This document shows, in pieces, positions 17,923 to 63,929 of a stretch of DNA of 64,000 bases. Made by a program: the position numbers and the translations under genes. The notes beneath the pieces were generated by a model that made no database searches, had not been told where the DNA came from, and saw only the letters and a list, made by a program, of their open reading frames with translations. The DNA is from a bacterium (GTDB lineage Bacteria > Patescibacteriota > Patescibacteriia > UBA10025), in NCBI GenBank assembly GCA_021815445.1, contig JAKAGM010000001.1, forward strand, positions 154,910 through 218,909, given 5' to 3'. Numbering within the stretch: position 1 is the first letter of the stretch; every line of letters begins with the position of its first letter.

Positions 17923-18843
17923 ATGCGTGCTTATTTACTTTCACATGCCATGATAGCCGATTATATCGCTCTCGCCATCCTTGTCATCAGCGTCGGTGTT
18001 GTCTTGATTATTTTCTTTAGGAAGTTCCCCGTTCTTTCCTCAATCAATATCAAAGAACTTCCATGGCATCAGCAGGACGAAGTGAAAGCCGACCTTATTG
18101 AGCACAGACTTTTCCGGAAACTGAAGACGGCTGCTATATGGGGCAGAAAGAGGGCACACCCTTTCCGTGAATGGCTGGAGGGCCGGGTCAGGGCTCTCCG
18201 CGCGTGGATCAGGCATCTTGAACAGAAGTATGAGGTTCCCGTACAACAGCTCTCCTCAGAGGATAAAGCGGGACGCGAGAAGCAGATAGCCCGTTTGTTC
18301 GACGAAAGCGCTGAGCTTTTTAAGGCCAAGGAGTATCATCTGGCTGAAAAGAAGATGATAGAGGTCATCAGCCTCGACCCAAAAAAGGTTGATGCATACA
18401 AAACTCTGGGTGAAGTATACTTTGCAATGAAGGATTACCGGCACGCGAAGGAAGTGCTGCACTACGTCTTAAAGTTGAATCAGCAGGACGACGAACTCCA
18501 CGCCAGACTGGGCAGAATTGCCGCATCAGAGGGACATTTTGAAGAAGCCCGCCAGGAATATGTGGCATCGATTGCGCTGAAGTACCAGCTTGCTGATCAC
18601 CATATTGATCTCGCGGAAACCCAAATGCAACTGGGGAATATGCAGGAGGCGCGCAAAAGTTTCGAAGAAGCTCTGCGTCTCGAACCCAGCAACCCGAGAA
18701 ATCTTGATGCATTCCTTGAATTCGCTATCACAATAAAGGATCAGTCCTTAGCTAAGAGTACGCTCGCCAAACTTCGTGATGTGAACCCTGAAAATCAGAA
18801 ACTCAAAGAATTCGAGGATCGAATTGACAACCTAGGCAAGTGA
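17923..18843 (+). CDS. TPR-repeat protein with N-terminal TM anchor
   Basis: 306 aa. TM helix, then several tetratricopeptide-like repeats (AYKTLGEVYFAMKDYRHAKEVLHYVLKLN...). Confidence 0.65.
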   Translation: MRAYLLSHAMIADYIALAILVISVGVVLIIFFRKFPVLSSINIKELPWHQQDEVKADLIEHRLFRKLKTAAIWGRKRAHPFREWLEGRVRALRAWIRHLEQKYEVPVQQLSSEDKAGREKQIARLFDESAELFKAKEYHLAEKKMIEVISLDPKKVDAYKTLGEVYFAMKDYRHAKEVLHYVLKLNQQDDELHARLGRIAASEGHFEEARQEYVASIALKYQLADHHIDLAETQMQLGNMQEARKSFEEALRLEPSNPRNLDAFLEFAITIKDQSLAKSTLAKLRDVNPENQKLKEFEDRIDNLGK

Positions 18844-18863
18844 GCGTATTTTCACACGTTCGT

Positions 18864-18944
18864 GCCGATGTAGTCCCGTCCCGCCCGGGCGGGACGAGGA
18901 TCCACGATCCCGCGGCGGGATCGGGACTCAGTTGGTCCGCCTGA
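18864..18944 (+). repeat. degenerate tRNA-Thr 5' fragment (GCCGATGTAG ... CTCAGTTGGT) split by a GC-rich insert carrying a perfect 20-bp palindrome
   Basis: gccgatgtag at 18864-18873 and ctcagttggt at 18930-18939 reproduce the 5' end of the adjacent tRNA-Thr. The insert contains CGTCCCGCCCGGGCGGGACG (18877-18896) and the near-palindrome GATCCCGCGGCGGGATC. Confidence 0.5.
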
Positions 18945-19017
18945 GCCGATGTAGCTCAGTTGGTAGAGCAACTCCATGGTAAGGAGTAGGTCCGCGGTTC
19001 AAATCCGCGCATCGGCT
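18945..19017 (+). tRNA. tRNA-Thr(GGT)
   Basis: Cloverleaf by hand: acceptor GCCGATG/CATCGGC, D arm GCTC-AGTTGGTA-GAGC, anticodon stem ACTCC/GGAGT with loop ATGGTAA, T arm CGCGG-TTCAAAT-CCGCG, discriminator T. No encoded CCA. Confidence 0.85.
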
Positions 19018-19110
19018 TAGGCGGGGCAAGTGTCGCAACTCCATGCCAAGTCCCGTCGAATGGCGGGAGTAAGGAGTAGGTCCGCGGTTCAAATCCGCGC
19101 ATCGGCTCCA
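19018..19110 (+). pseudogene. pseudo-tRNA: 3' two-thirds of tRNA-Thr(GGT) duplicated, with a 23-nt insert inside the anticodon loop and an encoded CCA
   Basis: GCAACTCCATG + [CCAAGTCCCGTCGAATGGCGGGA] + GTAAGGAGTAGGTCCGCGGTTCAAATCCGCGCATCGGCTCCA. There is no 5' acceptor strand or D arm, so it cannot fold into a tRNA. Confidence 0.5.
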
Positions 19111-19113
19111 TGG

Positions 19114-19197
19114 GGGTGGATACCGAAGCGGTCAAACGGGGCAGACTGTAAATCTGCTGGCCTCCGGCCTTCGTAGGTTCGAATCCTACTCCACCCA
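19114..19197 (+). tRNA. tRNA-Tyr(GTA), long variable arm
   Basis: Acceptor GGGTGGA/TCCACCC, anticodon stem GCAGA/TCTGC with loop CTGTAAA, variable arm TGGCCTCCGGCCTTC, T arm GTAGG-TTCGAAT-CCTAC, discriminator A. Confidence 0.85.
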
Positions 19198-19364
19198 GAT
19201 AGTCGATTTAATGAAGATTACCAATCTCCTCATAATTCGATATAGTAACGAAGTCTGGTGAGGATTCGAAGGGCAGAAGCGAACCCCGCGGCCGCGGGGG
19301 AGCGTCGGCGAATGCGAGCAAGCGAAGCATTCGACGCTGCCCAGGGCCCGAATCCTACTCCACC
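19198..19364 (+). repeat. GC-rich palindromic spacer ending in a 24-nt direct repeat of the tRNA-Tyr 3' end (cgaatcctactccacccagatagt at 19341-19364)
   Basis: Contains perfect palindrome CCCCGCGGCCGCGGGG, the long imperfect hairpin GCGTCGGCGAATGC...GCATTCGACGC, and an outer stem GGGCAG/CTGCCC. The copy keeps the T-loop and acceptor 3' strand but lacks the T-stem 5' strand. Confidence 0.5.
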
Positions 19365-19391
19365 CAGATAGTGAAAAGTCCCCTGAGTCTT

Positions 19392-19466
19392 GCCAGCGTA
19401 GCTCAGTGGTAGAGCAACTGTTTTGTAAACAGTAGGTCGTCGGTTCAAATCCGACCGCTGGCTCCA
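19392..19466 (+). tRNA. tRNA-Thr(TGT), CCA encoded
   Basis: Acceptor GCCAGCG/CGCTGGC, anticodon stem ACTGT/ACAGT with loop TTTGTAA, T arm GTCGG-TTCAAAT-CCGAC, discriminator T followed by CCA. Confidence 0.85.
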
Positions 19467-19501
19467 GCCGATCAATTATTTACTTTATTTTAAAAAAAAC
19501 T

Positions 19502-19657
19502 ATGTCACAGGATAACCTTACCAAGCTCGAGTGCACGGTGTGCCATCGTATCAATTATCACACCTTTAAGAACAAGAAAAAGCTCAAGAACCGTCTTGAG
19601 ATGAAAAAGTTCTGCACGTGGTGCGGCAAGCATCAGGTACACAAAGAGACGAAGTAA
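19502..19657 (+). CDS. rpmG: 50S ribosomal protein L33 (51 aa; below ORF-track size cutoff)
   Basis: [51 protein letters not shown]. The CxxC...CxxC zinc ribbon and the conserved C-terminal HKETK identify L33. Located in the classic tRNA-Thr/Tyr-rpmG-tRNA-Trp context. Confidence 0.85.
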
Positions 19658-19750: not shown

Positions 19751-19786
19751 AGGCACCCAGCATCGTTGGGCGTTTTTTGGTATACT
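19751..19786 (+). promoter_or_regulatory. promoter cassette AGGCACCC...GGCGTTTTTTGGTATACT (T-tract + extended -10), copy 1
   Basis: aggcacccagcatcgttgggcgttttttggtatact. An almost identical cassette recurs at 21319-21350. Confidence 0.5.
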
Positions 19787-36555: not shown

Positions 36556-36631
36556 TGGAGCCACCCGTCGGATTCGAACCGACGACCTCTGCTTTACGAA
36601 AGCATTGCTCTACCAGCTGAGCTAGGGTGGC
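36556..36631 (-). tRNA. tRNA-Thr(CGT), CCA encoded
   Basis: Reverse complement: GCCACCC-TA-GCTC-AGCTGGTA-GAGC, anticodon loop TTCGTAA, T arm GTCGG-TTCGAAT-CCGAC, GGGTGGC-T-CCA. One A:G mismatch at 27:43. Confidence 0.75.
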
Positions 36632-36644
36632 ACGAGATTTCCTC

Positions 36645-36715
36645 AGCGGATAACGGGAGTCGGACCCGTACCTCAACCTTGGGAAGGTCGTGTACTACCG
36701 CTATACTATATCCGC
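36645..36715 (-). tRNA. tRNA-Gly(CCC), 71 nt
   Basis: Reverse complement: acceptor GCGGATA/TATCCGC, anticodon stem CGACC/GGTTG with loop TTCCCAA, T arm ACGGG-TCCGACT-CCCGT (unusual C55), discriminator U. Confidence 0.55.
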
Positions 36716-41867: not shown

Positions 41868-41937
41868 CGGGATTCCCAGGCTTTACAGGGGAGTAGTTTT
41901 TTTGTAGAGTGTCTTCAGGAACTCTGTTTTTTTATAT

Positions 41938-42008
41938 TCCGGGATCGTCTAATGGTAGGACACAGGCCTTTGGAGCCTGGTATCTTGGTTCGAGTCCAAG
42001 TCCCGGAG
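41938..42008 (+). tRNA. tRNA-Gln(TTG)
   Basis: U1:A72 acceptor (TCCGGGA/TCCCGGA) and G73 discriminator typical of tRNA-Gln. Anticodon stem CAGGC/GCCTG with loop CTTTGGA. T arm CTTGG-TTCGAGT-CCAAG. Confidence 0.75.
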
Positions 42009-42077
42009 AAAGGGAAGCAAATATGATGAAACTTATCGAATTGAACGTGGAAATATAATCTTAATCACTTTTACCGT

Positions 42078-57201: not shown

Positions 57202-57224
57202 CTGGGTTGGCGTTACATAGGGAA

Positions 57225-57482
57225 ATGTACTACCTTTACATTCTGAAATGCTCAGATGGTACGCTCTATACAGGGATAACGACTGATATCAAGCGCAGGG
57301 TAGGAGAGCACAACGGTTTACAACGAGGAGCGCGGTATACTAGGTCACGAAGGCCGGTGAAGTTGGTTTTCTCAAAAAACTTCAGAACCAGGTCTACAGC
57401 GTCAGTCGCGGAAGCGCGATTTAAGCGGTTGTCACGCCGCGAAAAGATAAAGCTTGTGAAAGTAGTGAGAATGAAGAAGTAG
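57225..57482 (+). CDS. GIY-YIG nuclease family protein (UPF0213-like)
   Basis: MYYLYILKCSDGTLYTGITTDIKRRVGEHN. Start at ATG 57225 (the track used TTG 57207). Confidence 0.7.
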   Translation: MYYLYILKCSDGTLYTGITTDIKRRVGEHNGLQRGARYTRSRRPVKLVFSKNFRTRSTASVAEARFKRLSRREKIKLVKVVRMKK

Positions 57483-61943: not shown

Positions 61944-63929
61944 CTACTGGATCACTTTGAGATTCGGTTCGATACAGTCGCCCGTGCAAAGCTGCACCTC
62001 GCCCTGCGGATCCAGGGTATCAAGAGAATTAATTTTTATTTTATTCTCTGATATGGTGTACAGACTCCTACCTATGTATAGGATCCGTTGTATTGAATTG
62101 CCGTCGCCGTAATAGTTGTATCCGCTCTTTTTAAACGCGTCATCGATGACATAGTGGGTGATCCTGCCTTTTTCGACAAATCCACCGTCCAACGTAAGGT
62201 TGTAGACAAACGCGCCTTGGTACGTGAATTCACCATACGTGGTAGGGGCCGTCGTAAGTTGTTTCTGTTCAGAGCTAATCTCCGCCAGGAGGACGGGAAT
62301 AACGAGTATGTTTTTGCTCTTATCGAAAAGGAATGCCTTGTGGTCGTGCAAGGCATAGGAGTCAGTCCCTCTGTCGCCGATCGATGTTGTGAACATTTGT
62401 TGGGGGTTCGTCACGTCAGTCACGTCAAACAGCGCGAGCTTCATGCCCTGGTACCAGGAAAAATTCCCCTCCTCGGAGGGTATGGCCTCTTTGCCGAGGC
62501 CGATGATATGGTTCTCGTCATAGGGGTGGAGGTAATCGGAAAAGCCGGGGATTTTGAGCTTGCCGAGCAAAATCGGCTCCCGCGGATCGCTGAGTCCGAT
62601 CACAAAAAGGGGATCGACTTTTTGGAATGTGACGAGGTAGACCCTGTCACCCACGAATCGCGCCGAATATATCTGTTCTCCTGGGGCGAGTTCGTCTATT
62701 TTACCAGTCCGATCGAGGTTTTTATCGAAAACATAGACACCGCTTGACGGTTGCTGTCCGGGAAGAAATGTCCGAGAAACGTGGCCGCGGGTGGTCGCGA
62801 TGCGAAAGTAGCCGTTGTTCTCATCCATTGAGAACTGGTTGAGCACGTTACCGGGGGCTTCAAGATTTCCTCGGTAGGATACGGTCCCGTTTTTTAGGTC
62901 GAAGACGTGAACCGTGGTTGTCTCTTGTCCTGTAACGTCAGTGACATCCCCGAGCCACCAGTTGCCCGAATTCTTGGTTGCCGCAACATATAGCGCTTGG
63001 TCGGACGCGTATACATTTTGGCCTGACCCGAGAATAGTCTCCTTATGCAGGTCACTTGGATTTTTAGCAAGGTCAAACGATGCTACAGTGACGAATTGTT
63101 CGGCAACGACGTCGGGAAAGTAGGCAATATCAGCACATCCAGCAACCGGGTGGAATGCTTGAGAGGTTTCGCTTCCTTCCATGACTCGGTACAGGGGGAC
63201 AATCTCATCAGGCGGTGCGTTGGTATCGAGGATGGTGTAATCGGGATAGGAGTTTACCACAATATACACCTGCGACCCGATCTTGCGGGATGTAAGATAA
63301 CTGCCCTCGAGCTCCATGGTTCTCACAAGAGCCGGGCGTGTTGTGTCGCTGATGTCAAAAATCTGGATAGCGGTGAATGAACGCGAGAGATTTGATCGAA
63401 GAATTGCTGCAGTGTCGCCCTGTTCCTTAAGGATCTGCGGTGTGCTTGTCCCGAAGACGACGGCAGTCTTGTCCCCGATAAAAAGTTCCTGCGGGGTAAT
63501 TGAAAGCACGGTTTGGCTTGCCAGCGTAGCCTGGTCTGCGGGGTATGCTTTGATGATAGAAAGTTTACCGTGGGAAATTGTATAGATATATTTCCCGTCG
63601 GTTTTCACTATATCCGCTTCGTCTACCCCCGTGACCTGCACATTTGTCGCGGAATATCCGGGTGCCGCGCTATCAGCTGAGGTCGAAGCTTGAGGAGTGG
63701 GCAAGGCAATTTTTTCCTCGAGAATAAATCTGTTATTCGTCTTCTGAGCTTCTTTGAGAGCATCTTGTAGGGCAGAACACGAAGCGAACATGGGAAGACT
63801 TTGTGATGACCGAATGAGCGGGGAAGGGGCTGGATCGACCGTGAGGTAATAAAGAAGCATCAAAAATCCGACAGCTAAAAACGCCACTATTGCGAAGGGT
63901 GCCGTAAGTGCGCTTATACTTTTTTTCAT
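61944..63929 (-). CDS. large membrane-anchored extracytoplasmic protein, probably with a C-terminal beta-propeller domain (PF09826-like)
   Basis: 661 aa. N-terminal TM helix. Long beta-rich region with motifs such as VTFQKVDPLFVIGLSDPREPILLGKLKIPGFSDYLHPYDENHIIGLG, which recall the secreted beta-propeller family. The family call is tentative. Confidence 0.45.
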   Translation of the reverse strand: MKKSISALTAPFAIVAFLAVGFLMLLYYLTVDPAPSPLIRSSQSLPMFASCSALQDALKEAQKTNNRFILEEKIALPTPQASTSADSAAPGYSATNVQVTGVDEADIVKTDGKYIYTISHGKLSIIKAYPADQATLASQTVLSITPQELFIGDKTAVVFGTSTPQILKEQGDTAAILRSNLSRSFTAIQIFDISDTTRPALVRTMELEGSYLTSRKIGSQVYIVVNSYPDYTILDTNAPPDEIVPLYRVMEGSETSQAFHPVAGCADIAYFPDVVAEQFVTVASFDLAKNPSDLHKETILGSGQNVYASDQALYVAATKNSGNWWLGDVTDVTGQETTTVHVFDLKNGTVSYRGNLEAPGNVLNQFSMDENNGYFRIATTRGHVSRTFLPGQQPSSGVYVFDKNLDRTGKIDELAPGEQIYSARFVGDRVYLVTFQKVDPLFVIGLSDPREPILLGKLKIPGFSDYLHPYDENHIIGLGKEAIPSEEGNFSWYQGMKLALFDVTDVTNPQQMFTTSIGDRGTDSYALHDHKAFLFDKSKNILVIPVLLAEISSEQKQLTTAPTTYGEFTYQGAFVYNLTLDGGFVEKGRITHYVIDDAFKKSGYNYYGDGNSIQRILYIGRSLYTISENKIKINSLDTLDPQGEVQLCTGDCIEPNLKVIQ

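Follow-up and report, generated by a model that had tools for sequence, protein, structure and literature searches.

In the mitochondria of fungi, sponges, and algae, GC clusters, double-hairpin elements, and repetitive hairpin-forming elements are short, mobile, GC-rich hairpins that invade compact, AT-richer genomes and their RNA genes, and we know of no enzyme that mobilizes them. Short inserts at non-canonical positions and complementary flanks also characterize the multi-intron, split, and permuted tRNA genes of archaea, specifically of Thermoproteales and Nanoarchaeum. SegB, a free-standing GIY-YIG homing endonuclease of phage T4/T6 whose gene lies among clustered tRNA genes, cleaves within tRNA genes at a motif of the T-loop, RAWTSGAAC, and brings about a segmental amplification of tRNA-Tyr that depends on recombination (PMC13096335), and group I introns at tRNA position 35/36 have already been reported for Patescibacteria (PMC13011429). 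Here we describe the tRNA-Thr(GGT)–tRNA-Tyr–tRNA-Thr(TGT) cluster (18843-19502) of a patescibacterial chromosome, analyzed within a stretch of 64 kb (the window), in which an intact tRNA-Thr(GGT) gene lies inside an older, dead copy of the same gene and GC-rich hairpins interrupt the dead copy at exact tRNA positions. Repeated invasion of the tRNA cluster by selfish DNA is the most likely origin of the pattern, rather than random decay of duplicated genes. The literature searched contained no account of nested tRNAs or of these hairpins.

A tRNA-Thr(GGT) gene nested in its dead predecessor

The two tRNA-Thr(GGT) "fragments" of the window are the halves of one older gene that encloses the intact copy, rather than tandem pieces. 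Read 5′ to 3′ on the + strand, on which all features of the cluster lie, the layout is outer positions 1-10, insert 1, outer positions 11-20, a left arm, a whole tRNA-Thr(GGT), a right arm, outer positions 24-34, insert 3, and outer positions 35-73 followed by CCA. The outer pieces are identical to the intact gene throughout: positions 1-10 (GCCGATGTAG; 18864-18873) at 10/10 nucleotides, positions 11-20 (CTCAGTTGGT; 18927-18936) at 10/10, positions 24-34 (GCAACTCCATG; 19035-19045) at 11/11, and positions 35-73 at 39/39 (19069-19107), the last piece including an encoded CCA (19108-19110) and ending, at 19110, 3 nt before tRNA-Tyr. Insert 1 is a double GC-rich hairpin of 53 nt placed exactly between tRNA positions 10 and 11 (18874-18926); its hairpins span 18874-18900 and 18901-18926, it folds at -37 kcal/mol (z -2.9), and it contains a perfect 20-bp palindrome at 18877-18896. 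Insert 3 (CCAAGTCCCGTCGAATGGCGGGA, 23 nt; 19046-19068) lies inside the anticodon and consists of a CCAAG tail and the hairpin TCCCGTCGAATGGCGGGA (z -3.5). Shuffled controls folded far worse than the inserts (z -2.9, -3.5, and -2.5).

The inner tRNA-Thr(GGT), which has no encoded CCA, is intact (18945-19017; ARAGORN; Rfam, 71.1 bits) and is presumed to be the functional gene. It is bracketed by an inverted repeat, recognized from pairing and fold, whose left arm, CCGCCTGA (18937-18944), reads as a decayed relative of the conserved arm CCTGCCCGCC when set beside the arms of three related loci (L076, L036, and L008). The right arm, TAGGCGG with the decayed tail GGCAAGTGTC (19018-19034), pairs with 18929-18944 and stands in for outer positions 21-23. 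The arms lengthen the inner acceptor stem to a helix of ∼23 bp (18929-18951 with 19010-19032), and the fold predicted for the segment 18927-19034 is a cloverleaf carried by an extended stem (-57.7 kcal/mol, z -7.6). Isolated 10-nt matches to a tRNA do arise by chance, with 42 elsewhere in the window; in a scan of the window, only those at the cluster are on the same strand, collinear, and contiguous in tRNA coordinates. An 11-nt match at 63520 falls inside a coding sequence and was attributed to chance. Both of the longest GC-rich perfect palindromes of the 64 kb fall in this 500-nt stretch, no copies of the hairpins were found in the window outside the cluster, and the other tRNA loci of the window (36556-36715 and 41937-42009) are clean, with no hairpins.

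The ancestral state was read from two relatives, L007 and L009, whose cluster is compact and clean and whose flanking TPR protein is 55-60% identical to that of the window. In both, the one tRNA-Thr(GGT) present shares its acceptor stem (GCCGATG…CATCGGC) with the window gene and is separated by 11 nt from the -10 box and by 2 nt from tRNA-Tyr; in the window, the outer 5′ piece likewise begins 11 nt past the -10 box, and the outer 3′ piece ends just before tRNA-Tyr. With its pieces at the position of the gene in the clean relatives, the outer copy is, by this sequence comparison, the ancestral tRNA-Thr(GGT), still in its original place but dead. Relative to L007 and L009, the window carries four insertions, namely 53 nt at position 10/11, 98 nt in the D-loop (the arms and a whole tRNA, replacing 3 nt), 23 nt in the anticodon, and 169 nt at the tRNA-Tyr T-loop, made up of 145 nt and a 24-nt duplication.

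The fourth insertion follows the intact tRNA-Tyr(GTA) (19114-19197; ARAGORN, Rfam). Copy 1 of the duplication (19180-19203) is a direct repeat running from the T-loop to 6 nt past the end of tRNA-Tyr, and copy 2 (19349-19372) is contiguous with the ancestral spacer between tRNA-Tyr and tRNA-Thr(TGT), as seen from the homology of the sequence that follows it to the corresponding spacer of L007 and L009. Between the copies lies the structured 145-nt insert (19204-19348), which was characterized by repeat, palindrome, and promoter scans and by folding, and which contains an inverted copy of the T-arm (19261-19270), the inverted repeat GGGCAG…CTGCCC (19271-19276 / 19337-19342), the palindrome CCCCGCGGCCGCGGGG (19284-19299), and the hairpin GCGTCGGCGAATGC/GCATTCGACGC (19302-19315 / 19327-19337). 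There is no plausible protein gene between the repeats, the open reading frames (ORFs) of at least 45 aa there all overlapping tRNA sequences. Relatives of this insert lie 3′ of tRNA-Tyr in L076 and L080 and 3′ of tRNA-Trp in L018. The insert also holds a second promoter-like site, TTACCA-17-TATAGT (19218-19246), and might in this way supply a promoter to tRNA-Thr(TGT) and rpmG, which lie downstream.

A preliminary description of this locus, made from the DNA letters, had reported three decayed tRNA pieces around the intact tRNAs, and all three are present. Its 3′ tRNA-Thr piece, with a 23-nt insert in the anticodon and an encoded CCA that the intact copy lacks, stands as described. The split of the 5′ tRNA-Thr fragment and the 20-bp palindrome were also recovered, the insert measuring 53 nt and not 56 nt, as were the 24-nt tRNA-Tyr repeat and the palindrome and long hairpin in its spacer, which measures 145 nt and not 143 nt. 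The TCCCG…CGGGA stem that was said to be common to all inserts is found in inserts 1 and 3 and only loosely in the tRNA-Tyr spacer. The Rfam check that had been proposed was run together with ARAGORN, and four intact tRNAs were called and nothing else, with the same outcome at E<=10; the fragments were not called, and no tool reported them as intron-containing tRNAs. Weak Rfam matches to 6C and YrlA, in searches at the gathering score and at E<=10, were set aside as noise. The nesting of gene within gene, the ∼23-bp helix that extends the inner acceptor stem, and the link to endonuclease cassettes had been missed.

The host of the window belongs to the Patescibacteria (candidate phyla radiation, CPR), which is the annotation of the best database matches to the flanking TPR protein. 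Genes are arranged in the order rpsB, tsf, the TPR protein (17923-18843), tRNA-Thr(GGT), tRNA-Tyr, tRNA-Thr(TGT), rpmG (19502-19657), and tRNA-Trp. The outer tRNA follows a promoter-like site, TTGACA-17-TATTTT (18824-18852), at a distance of 11 nt, which is also the distance in L007 and L009, and a terminator-like site lies at 19756-19770; the whole Thr-Tyr-Thr-rpmG-Trp stretch is therefore plausibly a single operon. tRNA-Thr(TGT) (19392-19466; ARAGORN, Rfam) is intact and free of relics in the window genome, and in relatives it is a target of the same insertions as tRNA-Thr(GGT) and tRNA-Tyr. An 877-kb ENA contig is identical to the window across the region, and contigs of two further samples agree with it until their assemblies break within the repeats. 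Short-read assemblies of the window genome and of a 96%-related genome stop within the cluster or at its edge (the start of L002, the end of L003, and L010); assembly breaks at the repeated tRNA pieces seem to be routine.

Recurrence and nuclease genes among relatives

For comparison, 32 loci were fetched through rpmG and 80 through the TPR family (L numbers). The inserts proved not to be unique to the window, as relatives carry them: the architecture, the hairpin families, and the arms CCTGCCCGCC…GGCAGGCGGG recur in the Thr-Tyr-Thr-rpmG-Trp cluster of dozens of Patescibacteria. Nesting was found for tRNA-Thr(GGT) in nine loci (L076, L073, L080, L079, L085, L103, L036, L008, and L084), for tRNA-Thr(TGT), at the D-loop or at 35/36, in L018, L084, and L150, for tRNA-Trp in L013, and for tRNA-Tyr in L073 and L084. 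L076 is a near-replica of the window; its 5′ part reads GCCGATGTAGC…CTCAGTGGTAGA / CCTGCCCGCCTTAGCC, an inner tRNA of a different allele, and AGGCGAGGGCAGGCG, and its 3′ part reads GAGCAACTCCATG / CATG-CCCCGTCGAATGGCGGGG / GTAAGGAGTAGGTCG, a hairpin in place of the T-arm, and CCATCGGCT. The anticodon hairpin of L076 is the window hairpin TCCCGTCGAATGGCGGGA at the same site, with C-G in place of U-A as the closing pair, and TCCCGTCGAATGGCGGGA also takes the place of the T-arm in a shell of L073. Counterparts of insert 1 are a two-hairpin insert at the same tRNA site in L004 and, in L076, a similar insert within the decayed 5′ fragment of a tRNA that lies 3′ of tRNA-Thr(TGT). L073 contains two shells, the acceptor strands of which pair in nested order, and in L084 one hairpin is present both empty, with a 5-nt loop, and filled with a tRNA, the flanks being identical. 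The shells are decayed: the D-stem of the window shell is broken, the shell of L036 carries G53A, and the shell of L008 is degenerate. Two further arrangements involve tRNA-Trp, in that L013 (3300-3500) has an intact gene between perfect 13-bp inverted repeats inside an older tRNA-Trp, and L008 (3826-3860) has the 5′ half of a different tRNA-Trp allele, ending in the anticodon, upstream of an intact one.

The insertions are exact, with neither duplication nor loss of the target (…TTGGTA/CCTGCCCGCC…GGCAGGCGGG/GAGCAAC… and …TTTTG/…/TAAACAG…), and their ends are conserved. The arms CCTGCCCGCC/GGCAGGCGG(G) stand at D-loop or anticodon junctions in at least 12 loci; a double hairpin (…GGCGGGR followed by TGCCGCCnnnGGCGGCA) always precedes TAAA in the anticodon loop of tRNA-Tyr or tRNA-Thr(TGT) (7 loci); and hairpins of the CCCCGYA…TRCGGGG family, which have a CARG tail and show U-A to C-G covariation, were found in either orientation in 10 loci, at tRNA positions 13/14, in the D-loop, at 34/35, and at 47/48. 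Motif hairpins reach 0.44 and 0.41 per kb in clusters vs. 0.04 and 0.05 in flanks (∼10x), and inverted repeats abut intact tRNAs in 21 of 245 contexts at empirical p<=0.01, vs. 2.5 expected. A sense/antisense test for RNA-level selection was negative (37 vs. 36 G-U pairs, with stability likewise unbiased); the occurrence of both orientations and the lack of strand bias together point to a palindromic element acting at the DNA level rather than a strand-specific RNA motif. Hairpins with arms CCTGCCCGC…GGCAGGCGGG also stand in tandem in two IMG/VR contigs (L059 1610-1728 and L067 6462-6580), one of them just upstream of a phage tRNA-Gly, and L065 (1826-1916) shows a similar hairpin. A phage origin is not established by these contigs, the scans of viral contigs with the arm sequences having returned mostly chance hits in GC-rich phages, with L059/L067 and L065 as the sole similar hairpins.

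In 13 loci, the cluster contains small GIY-YIG genes (Pfam E 1e-15 to 1e-18). At least five of these (L023, L073, L084, L089, and L119) share the order tRNA-Tyr 5′ half (1-34), double hairpin, TAAATCT, GIY-YIG gene, and intact tRNA-Tyr, and in L073 and L084 the displaced tRNA-Tyr 3′ half lies downstream of the GIY-YIG module, which is nesting again. In other loci the GIY-YIG genes adjoin tRNA-Thr(GGT) (L108, L109, and L132) or tRNA-Trp (L079). Loci with a nuclease-type gene have 3.44 hairpins vs. 0.81 in loci without one (Mann-Whitney p=6e-4; Fisher odds ratio 4.1), each locus being counted regardless of phylogeny.

Other genes and introns were observed at these clusters. In L084 (3900-4560), three tandem units each carry a hairpin-split tRNA-Tyr 5′ fragment, the first after a C-terminal GIY-YIG remnant and the third after an intact gene, an arrangement that by analogy with SegB indicates a putative local segmental amplification. 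A conserved ORF of ∼200 aa precedes tRNA-Tyr in five loci (L008 2192-2842, L032 ∼1877-2574, L113, L133, and L142) and extends up to or into the tRNA-Tyr 5′ end in L008 and L032; it has no Pfam, NCBIfam, or PDB match beyond a weak N-terminal helix-turn-helix hint and may be an undescribed homing endonuclease. A LAGLIDADG enzyme had been guessed for the L008/L032 ORF, but Pfam, a PDB sequence search, and NCBIfam gave the weak helix-turn-helix hint only. Group I introns interrupt the tRNA-Tyr anticodon loop at ∼35/36 in L025 (2012-2255) and L032 (2524-2766) (Rfam, 80 and 68 bits), and because of this interruption ARAGORN misses both genes. In L004 (4313-4684), a "23S rRNA intervening sequence protein" gene (PF05635, E 1e-29) lies between tRNA-Thr(TGT) and rpmG, and ORFs in the tRNA clusters of L011 and L082 group with it by BLASTP. 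In the window, a GIY-YIG ORF at 57207-57482 (+) encodes 91 aa from a TTG at 57207, with the homologous part starting at an ATG at 57225; it directly follows a DEAD-box helicase gene and is 41% identical to the cluster GIY-YIG protein of L018.

Clean and filled clusters both exist among the relatives, and the inner and outer alleles of nested genes often differ (L013, L103, L085, L076, and L080). A tRNA-Thr(GGT) type with a GCCGAGA acceptor and a CCCC/GGGG anticodon stem is the live inner gene in L013 and a dead shell in L073. Among closely similar contigs, the sole difference between L076 and L077 is a 34-nt indel within a double hairpin; a unit made of an arm and a tRNA-Thr(TGT) 3′ half is present in different copy numbers in L145 and L147; and L076 matches L078 at 100% identity (>500 nt) as far as the tRNA-Tyr 3′ repeat, the two being unrelated past it, with the breakpoint near L076 3917. 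Past the breakpoint, L078 has a different tRNA-Thr(TGT) region, with the arm GGCGCTTGGCAGGCGGG and a chimeric-looking tRNA-Thr(TGT) whose acceptor strands are unpaired. Recombination breakpoints therefore fall in tRNA-derived sequences. Allele replacement or co-conversion and mosaic breakpoints, as expected of homing cassettes, were found in the relatives and not in the window itself.

Explanations of the nested genes

The explanation that we favor, at about even chances, is that tRNA genes were replaced serially and in nested fashion by homing-type cassettes and invaded by small palindromic elements, leaving fossil shells. A small endonuclease, of the GIY-YIG type in many relatives, would cut a tRNA gene, and the break would be repaired from a donor that carries both the insertion and a replacement tRNA; repeated rounds would produce shells within shells. 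Small hairpins of the same families would insert without target duplication and would survive only in dead shells, because hits in a live gene would be lethal. Transcription of the operon would probably start at the promoter at 18824-18852 and run through the cluster, after which the usual tRNA maturation enzymes would excise the inner tRNA and add its CCA, and the RNA of the shell and hairpins would be lost as spacer; mispairing of the inner tRNA with the shell pieces, which are identical to it, may be prevented by the flanking helix. There is no nuclease gene in the window cluster, so the cluster looks like an inactive relic. With somewhat less than even confidence, we further propose that Patescibacteria contain an undescribed class of mobile DNA that targets tRNAs. 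Its members would be small cassettes with conserved GC-rich inverted repeats as their ends, entering the D-loop or anticodon loop of a resident tRNA gene exactly and without target duplication and bringing a complete replacement tRNA and sometimes a GIY-YIG gene; the empty hairpins in the dead shells would be miniature derivatives.

Several observations weigh against serial replacement. The window cluster (18843-19502) contains no endonuclease, integrase, or transposase gene, and ORF 57207-57482, the sole GIY-YIG candidate in the window, is 38 kb from the cluster with nothing tying the two together. The hairpins are only 20-50 nt long, and their mobilization, like cleavage and homing, is a step that we infer. 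The shell pieces agree with the inner gene at 70/70 nucleotides, which needs either a very recent event or gene conversion. No exact pair of empty and filled sites was found among near-identical contigs, L076/L077 representing an internal deletion, and the statistics linking nucleases and hairpins disregard phylogeny. Finally, hairpins are kept at the same sites, some with compensatory changes, in lineages whose flanking protein is 35-45% identical, which could mean that they have a function.

The main rival holds that the shell and hairpins are under selection for a role as RNA. The shell, the capping hairpins, and the helix would then be selected parts of the tRNA precursor, serving as processing or insulation signals, a minihelix handle, a decoy, or a maturation scaffold; this would accord with the conservation and compensatory changes just mentioned, with the enrichment of leader-trailer pairing around intact tRNAs, AT-rich arms included, with the retention in the shell of the acceptor stem plus the T-arm or a replacement hairpin, and with the promoter immediately before the shell 5′ end, the fold (z -7.6), and the 70/70 shell identity. 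We nevertheless consider it rather unlikely, since the structures are absent altogether from the close relatives L007 and L009 and from many other loci, the shells decay (the window D-stem, L036 G53A, L008), the hairpins occur in both orientations without G-U strand asymmetry and together with selfish nuclease genes, and inner and outer alleles are swapped among mosaic strains. The co-transcribed processing signals suggested in the preliminary description, though possible, draw no support from the strand asymmetry test or from the patchy distribution. Its idea of palindromic elements that home to tRNA genes came closest to the present findings, in that homologous hairpins with conserved stems occupy the same tRNA positions and are enriched ∼10x in clusters; the dispersed family that it envisaged, of repetitive extragenic palindromes (REPs) or miniature inverted-repeat transposable elements (MITEs), was contradicted when dispersal was looked at in the 64-kb window (of a genome of roughly 0.88 Mb), where no copies lie elsewhere. 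It is unlikely that the hairpins are like REPs or palindrome-associated transposable elements (PATEs), moved by a REP-associated tyrosine transposase (RAYT) or an IS200/IS605-type single-stranded DNA transposase, with the tRNA duplications a separate local process. Oriented hairpins in both orientations, a conserved 4-nt tail (CARG/CYTG), double-hairpin units, and precise insertion without target duplication, often just after GTAG (tRNA positions 7-10 and 41-44), are what such elements would leave; however, the hairpins are not dispersed, flanks having about one tenth of the cluster density, no transposase was seen near any locus in a screen of cluster-internal ORFs and three protein families, the insertion sites share no common target tetranucleotide, and the same arms also bracket whole tRNAs.

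Classical integrase scars, in which phage or island integration duplicated tRNA 3′ parts as attL/attR and the elements were later deleted, are a quite improbable explanation of the locus as a whole. Such integration is the standard source of tRNA fragments (PMC9897764), the 24-nt tRNA-Tyr repeat starts in the T-loop, a known integrase crossover class, and L008 and L145 contain tandem arrays of 3′ halves that start in the anticodon loop. The att-site scars put forward in the preliminary description thus fit the tRNA-Tyr repeat and nothing else: att recombination yields neither 5′ fragments nor strict nesting, no integrase or element remnant lies between the repeats, even the tRNA-Tyr repeat takes in 6 nt of local non-tRNA flank, and the hairpins within fragments are left unexplained. 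Least probable is a spliced split or multi-intron tRNA gene, or an artefact of assembling repeated tRNA sequence. The D-loop and anticodon 34-36 sites do resemble archaeal non-canonical sites and the group I site at 35/36 of Patescibacteria (PMC13011429), and short-read assemblies do break within the cluster. Without its inserts, however, the outer gene still lacks positions 21-23 and can form no D-stem, the junctions are not bulge-helix-bulge motifs, helices begin right at the junctions, and an intact copy is always present; no group I signal was detected in the window (Rfam, gathering score and E<=10). The intron and split-tRNA (bulge-helix-bulge) readings were rejected on these structural grounds, and the artefact reading was rejected too, the independent 877-kb contig being identical and analogous structures being found in well over ten unrelated assemblies. 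The comparison with relatives that had been proposed for finding the ancestral copy argues in the same direction as serial replacement, with the outer tRNA-Thr(GGT) shell as the ancestral gene.

To our knowledge, self-supplied replacement has not been described as a mode of gene turnover for bacterial tRNAs. If serial replacement by cassettes is correct, a selfish element would escape the lethality of hitting an essential single-copy gene by carrying the replacement with it, and the Thr-Tyr-Thr-rpmG-Trp cluster would be a hotspot of recombination and horizontal exchange in a phylum of minimal genomes. It would also explain the breaks of short-read assemblies at this operon as well as misleading tRNA counts and pseudo-tRNA calls, and it would offer, for experimental study, small GIY-YIG proteins as candidate site-specific nucleases and hairpins as candidate elements of precise insertion. 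Were the functional reading true instead, the cluster would represent a new mode of tRNA precursor organization.

Comparison with described systems

Fragments left as attL/attR resemble the window in the presence of partial tRNAs beside intact ones, in breakpoints at the anticodon loop and T-loop, and in the repetition of the tRNA-Tyr 3′ end (24 nt) and of 39 nt of tRNA-Thr(GGT). They differ in that the window cluster has 5′ pieces, strict nesting, inserts of 23-170 nt, hairpins in the fragments, and no integrase; in place of one-sided displaced ends, the intact tRNA-Thr(GGT) has the 5′ piece before it and the 3′ piece after it. The group I introns of Patescibacteria are found in the same phylum and at the same anticodon-loop site (L025 and L032 tRNA-Tyr; PMC13011429), whereas the window inserts are Rfam-negative for the ribozyme, cannot self-splice, and lie in a dead copy. 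The archaeal multi-intron, split, and permuted genes differ in host and in structure, the window being bacterial and its interrupted copy free of bulge-helix-bulge motifs and not restorable to a valid tRNA, with an intact copy present.

SegB offers a likeness to the GIY-YIG loci in that a small GIY-YIG gene lies among tRNA genes, adjoining tRNA-Tyr, and in that tRNA segments are duplicated and preferentially inherited (PMC13096335, PMC2330249). The SegB T-loop motif matches, on the complementary strand, the window tRNA-Tyr breakpoint GATTCGAAC, where the window duplication starts. However, SegB is a phage enzyme and its amplification is tandem, whereas the replacement described here is nested, on a bacterial chromosome, and accompanied by inverted-repeat arms and hairpin inserts; the window cluster lacks a nuclease gene. 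REPs, the bacterial interspersed mosaic elements (BIMEs) mobilized with RAYT, and PATEs share with the hairpins a GC-rich, imperfectly palindromic form, a flanking tetranucleotide, single and double hairpins, both orientations, and the lack of target duplication, but the hairpins described here are confined to one tRNA cluster, have no associated transposase seen, and hold whole tRNAs in some of their loops. From the mitochondrial hairpin elements, finally, the patescibacterial elements are set apart by a bacterial host, by tRNA loops as targets, and by the presence of replacement tRNA cassettes and GIY-YIG genes.

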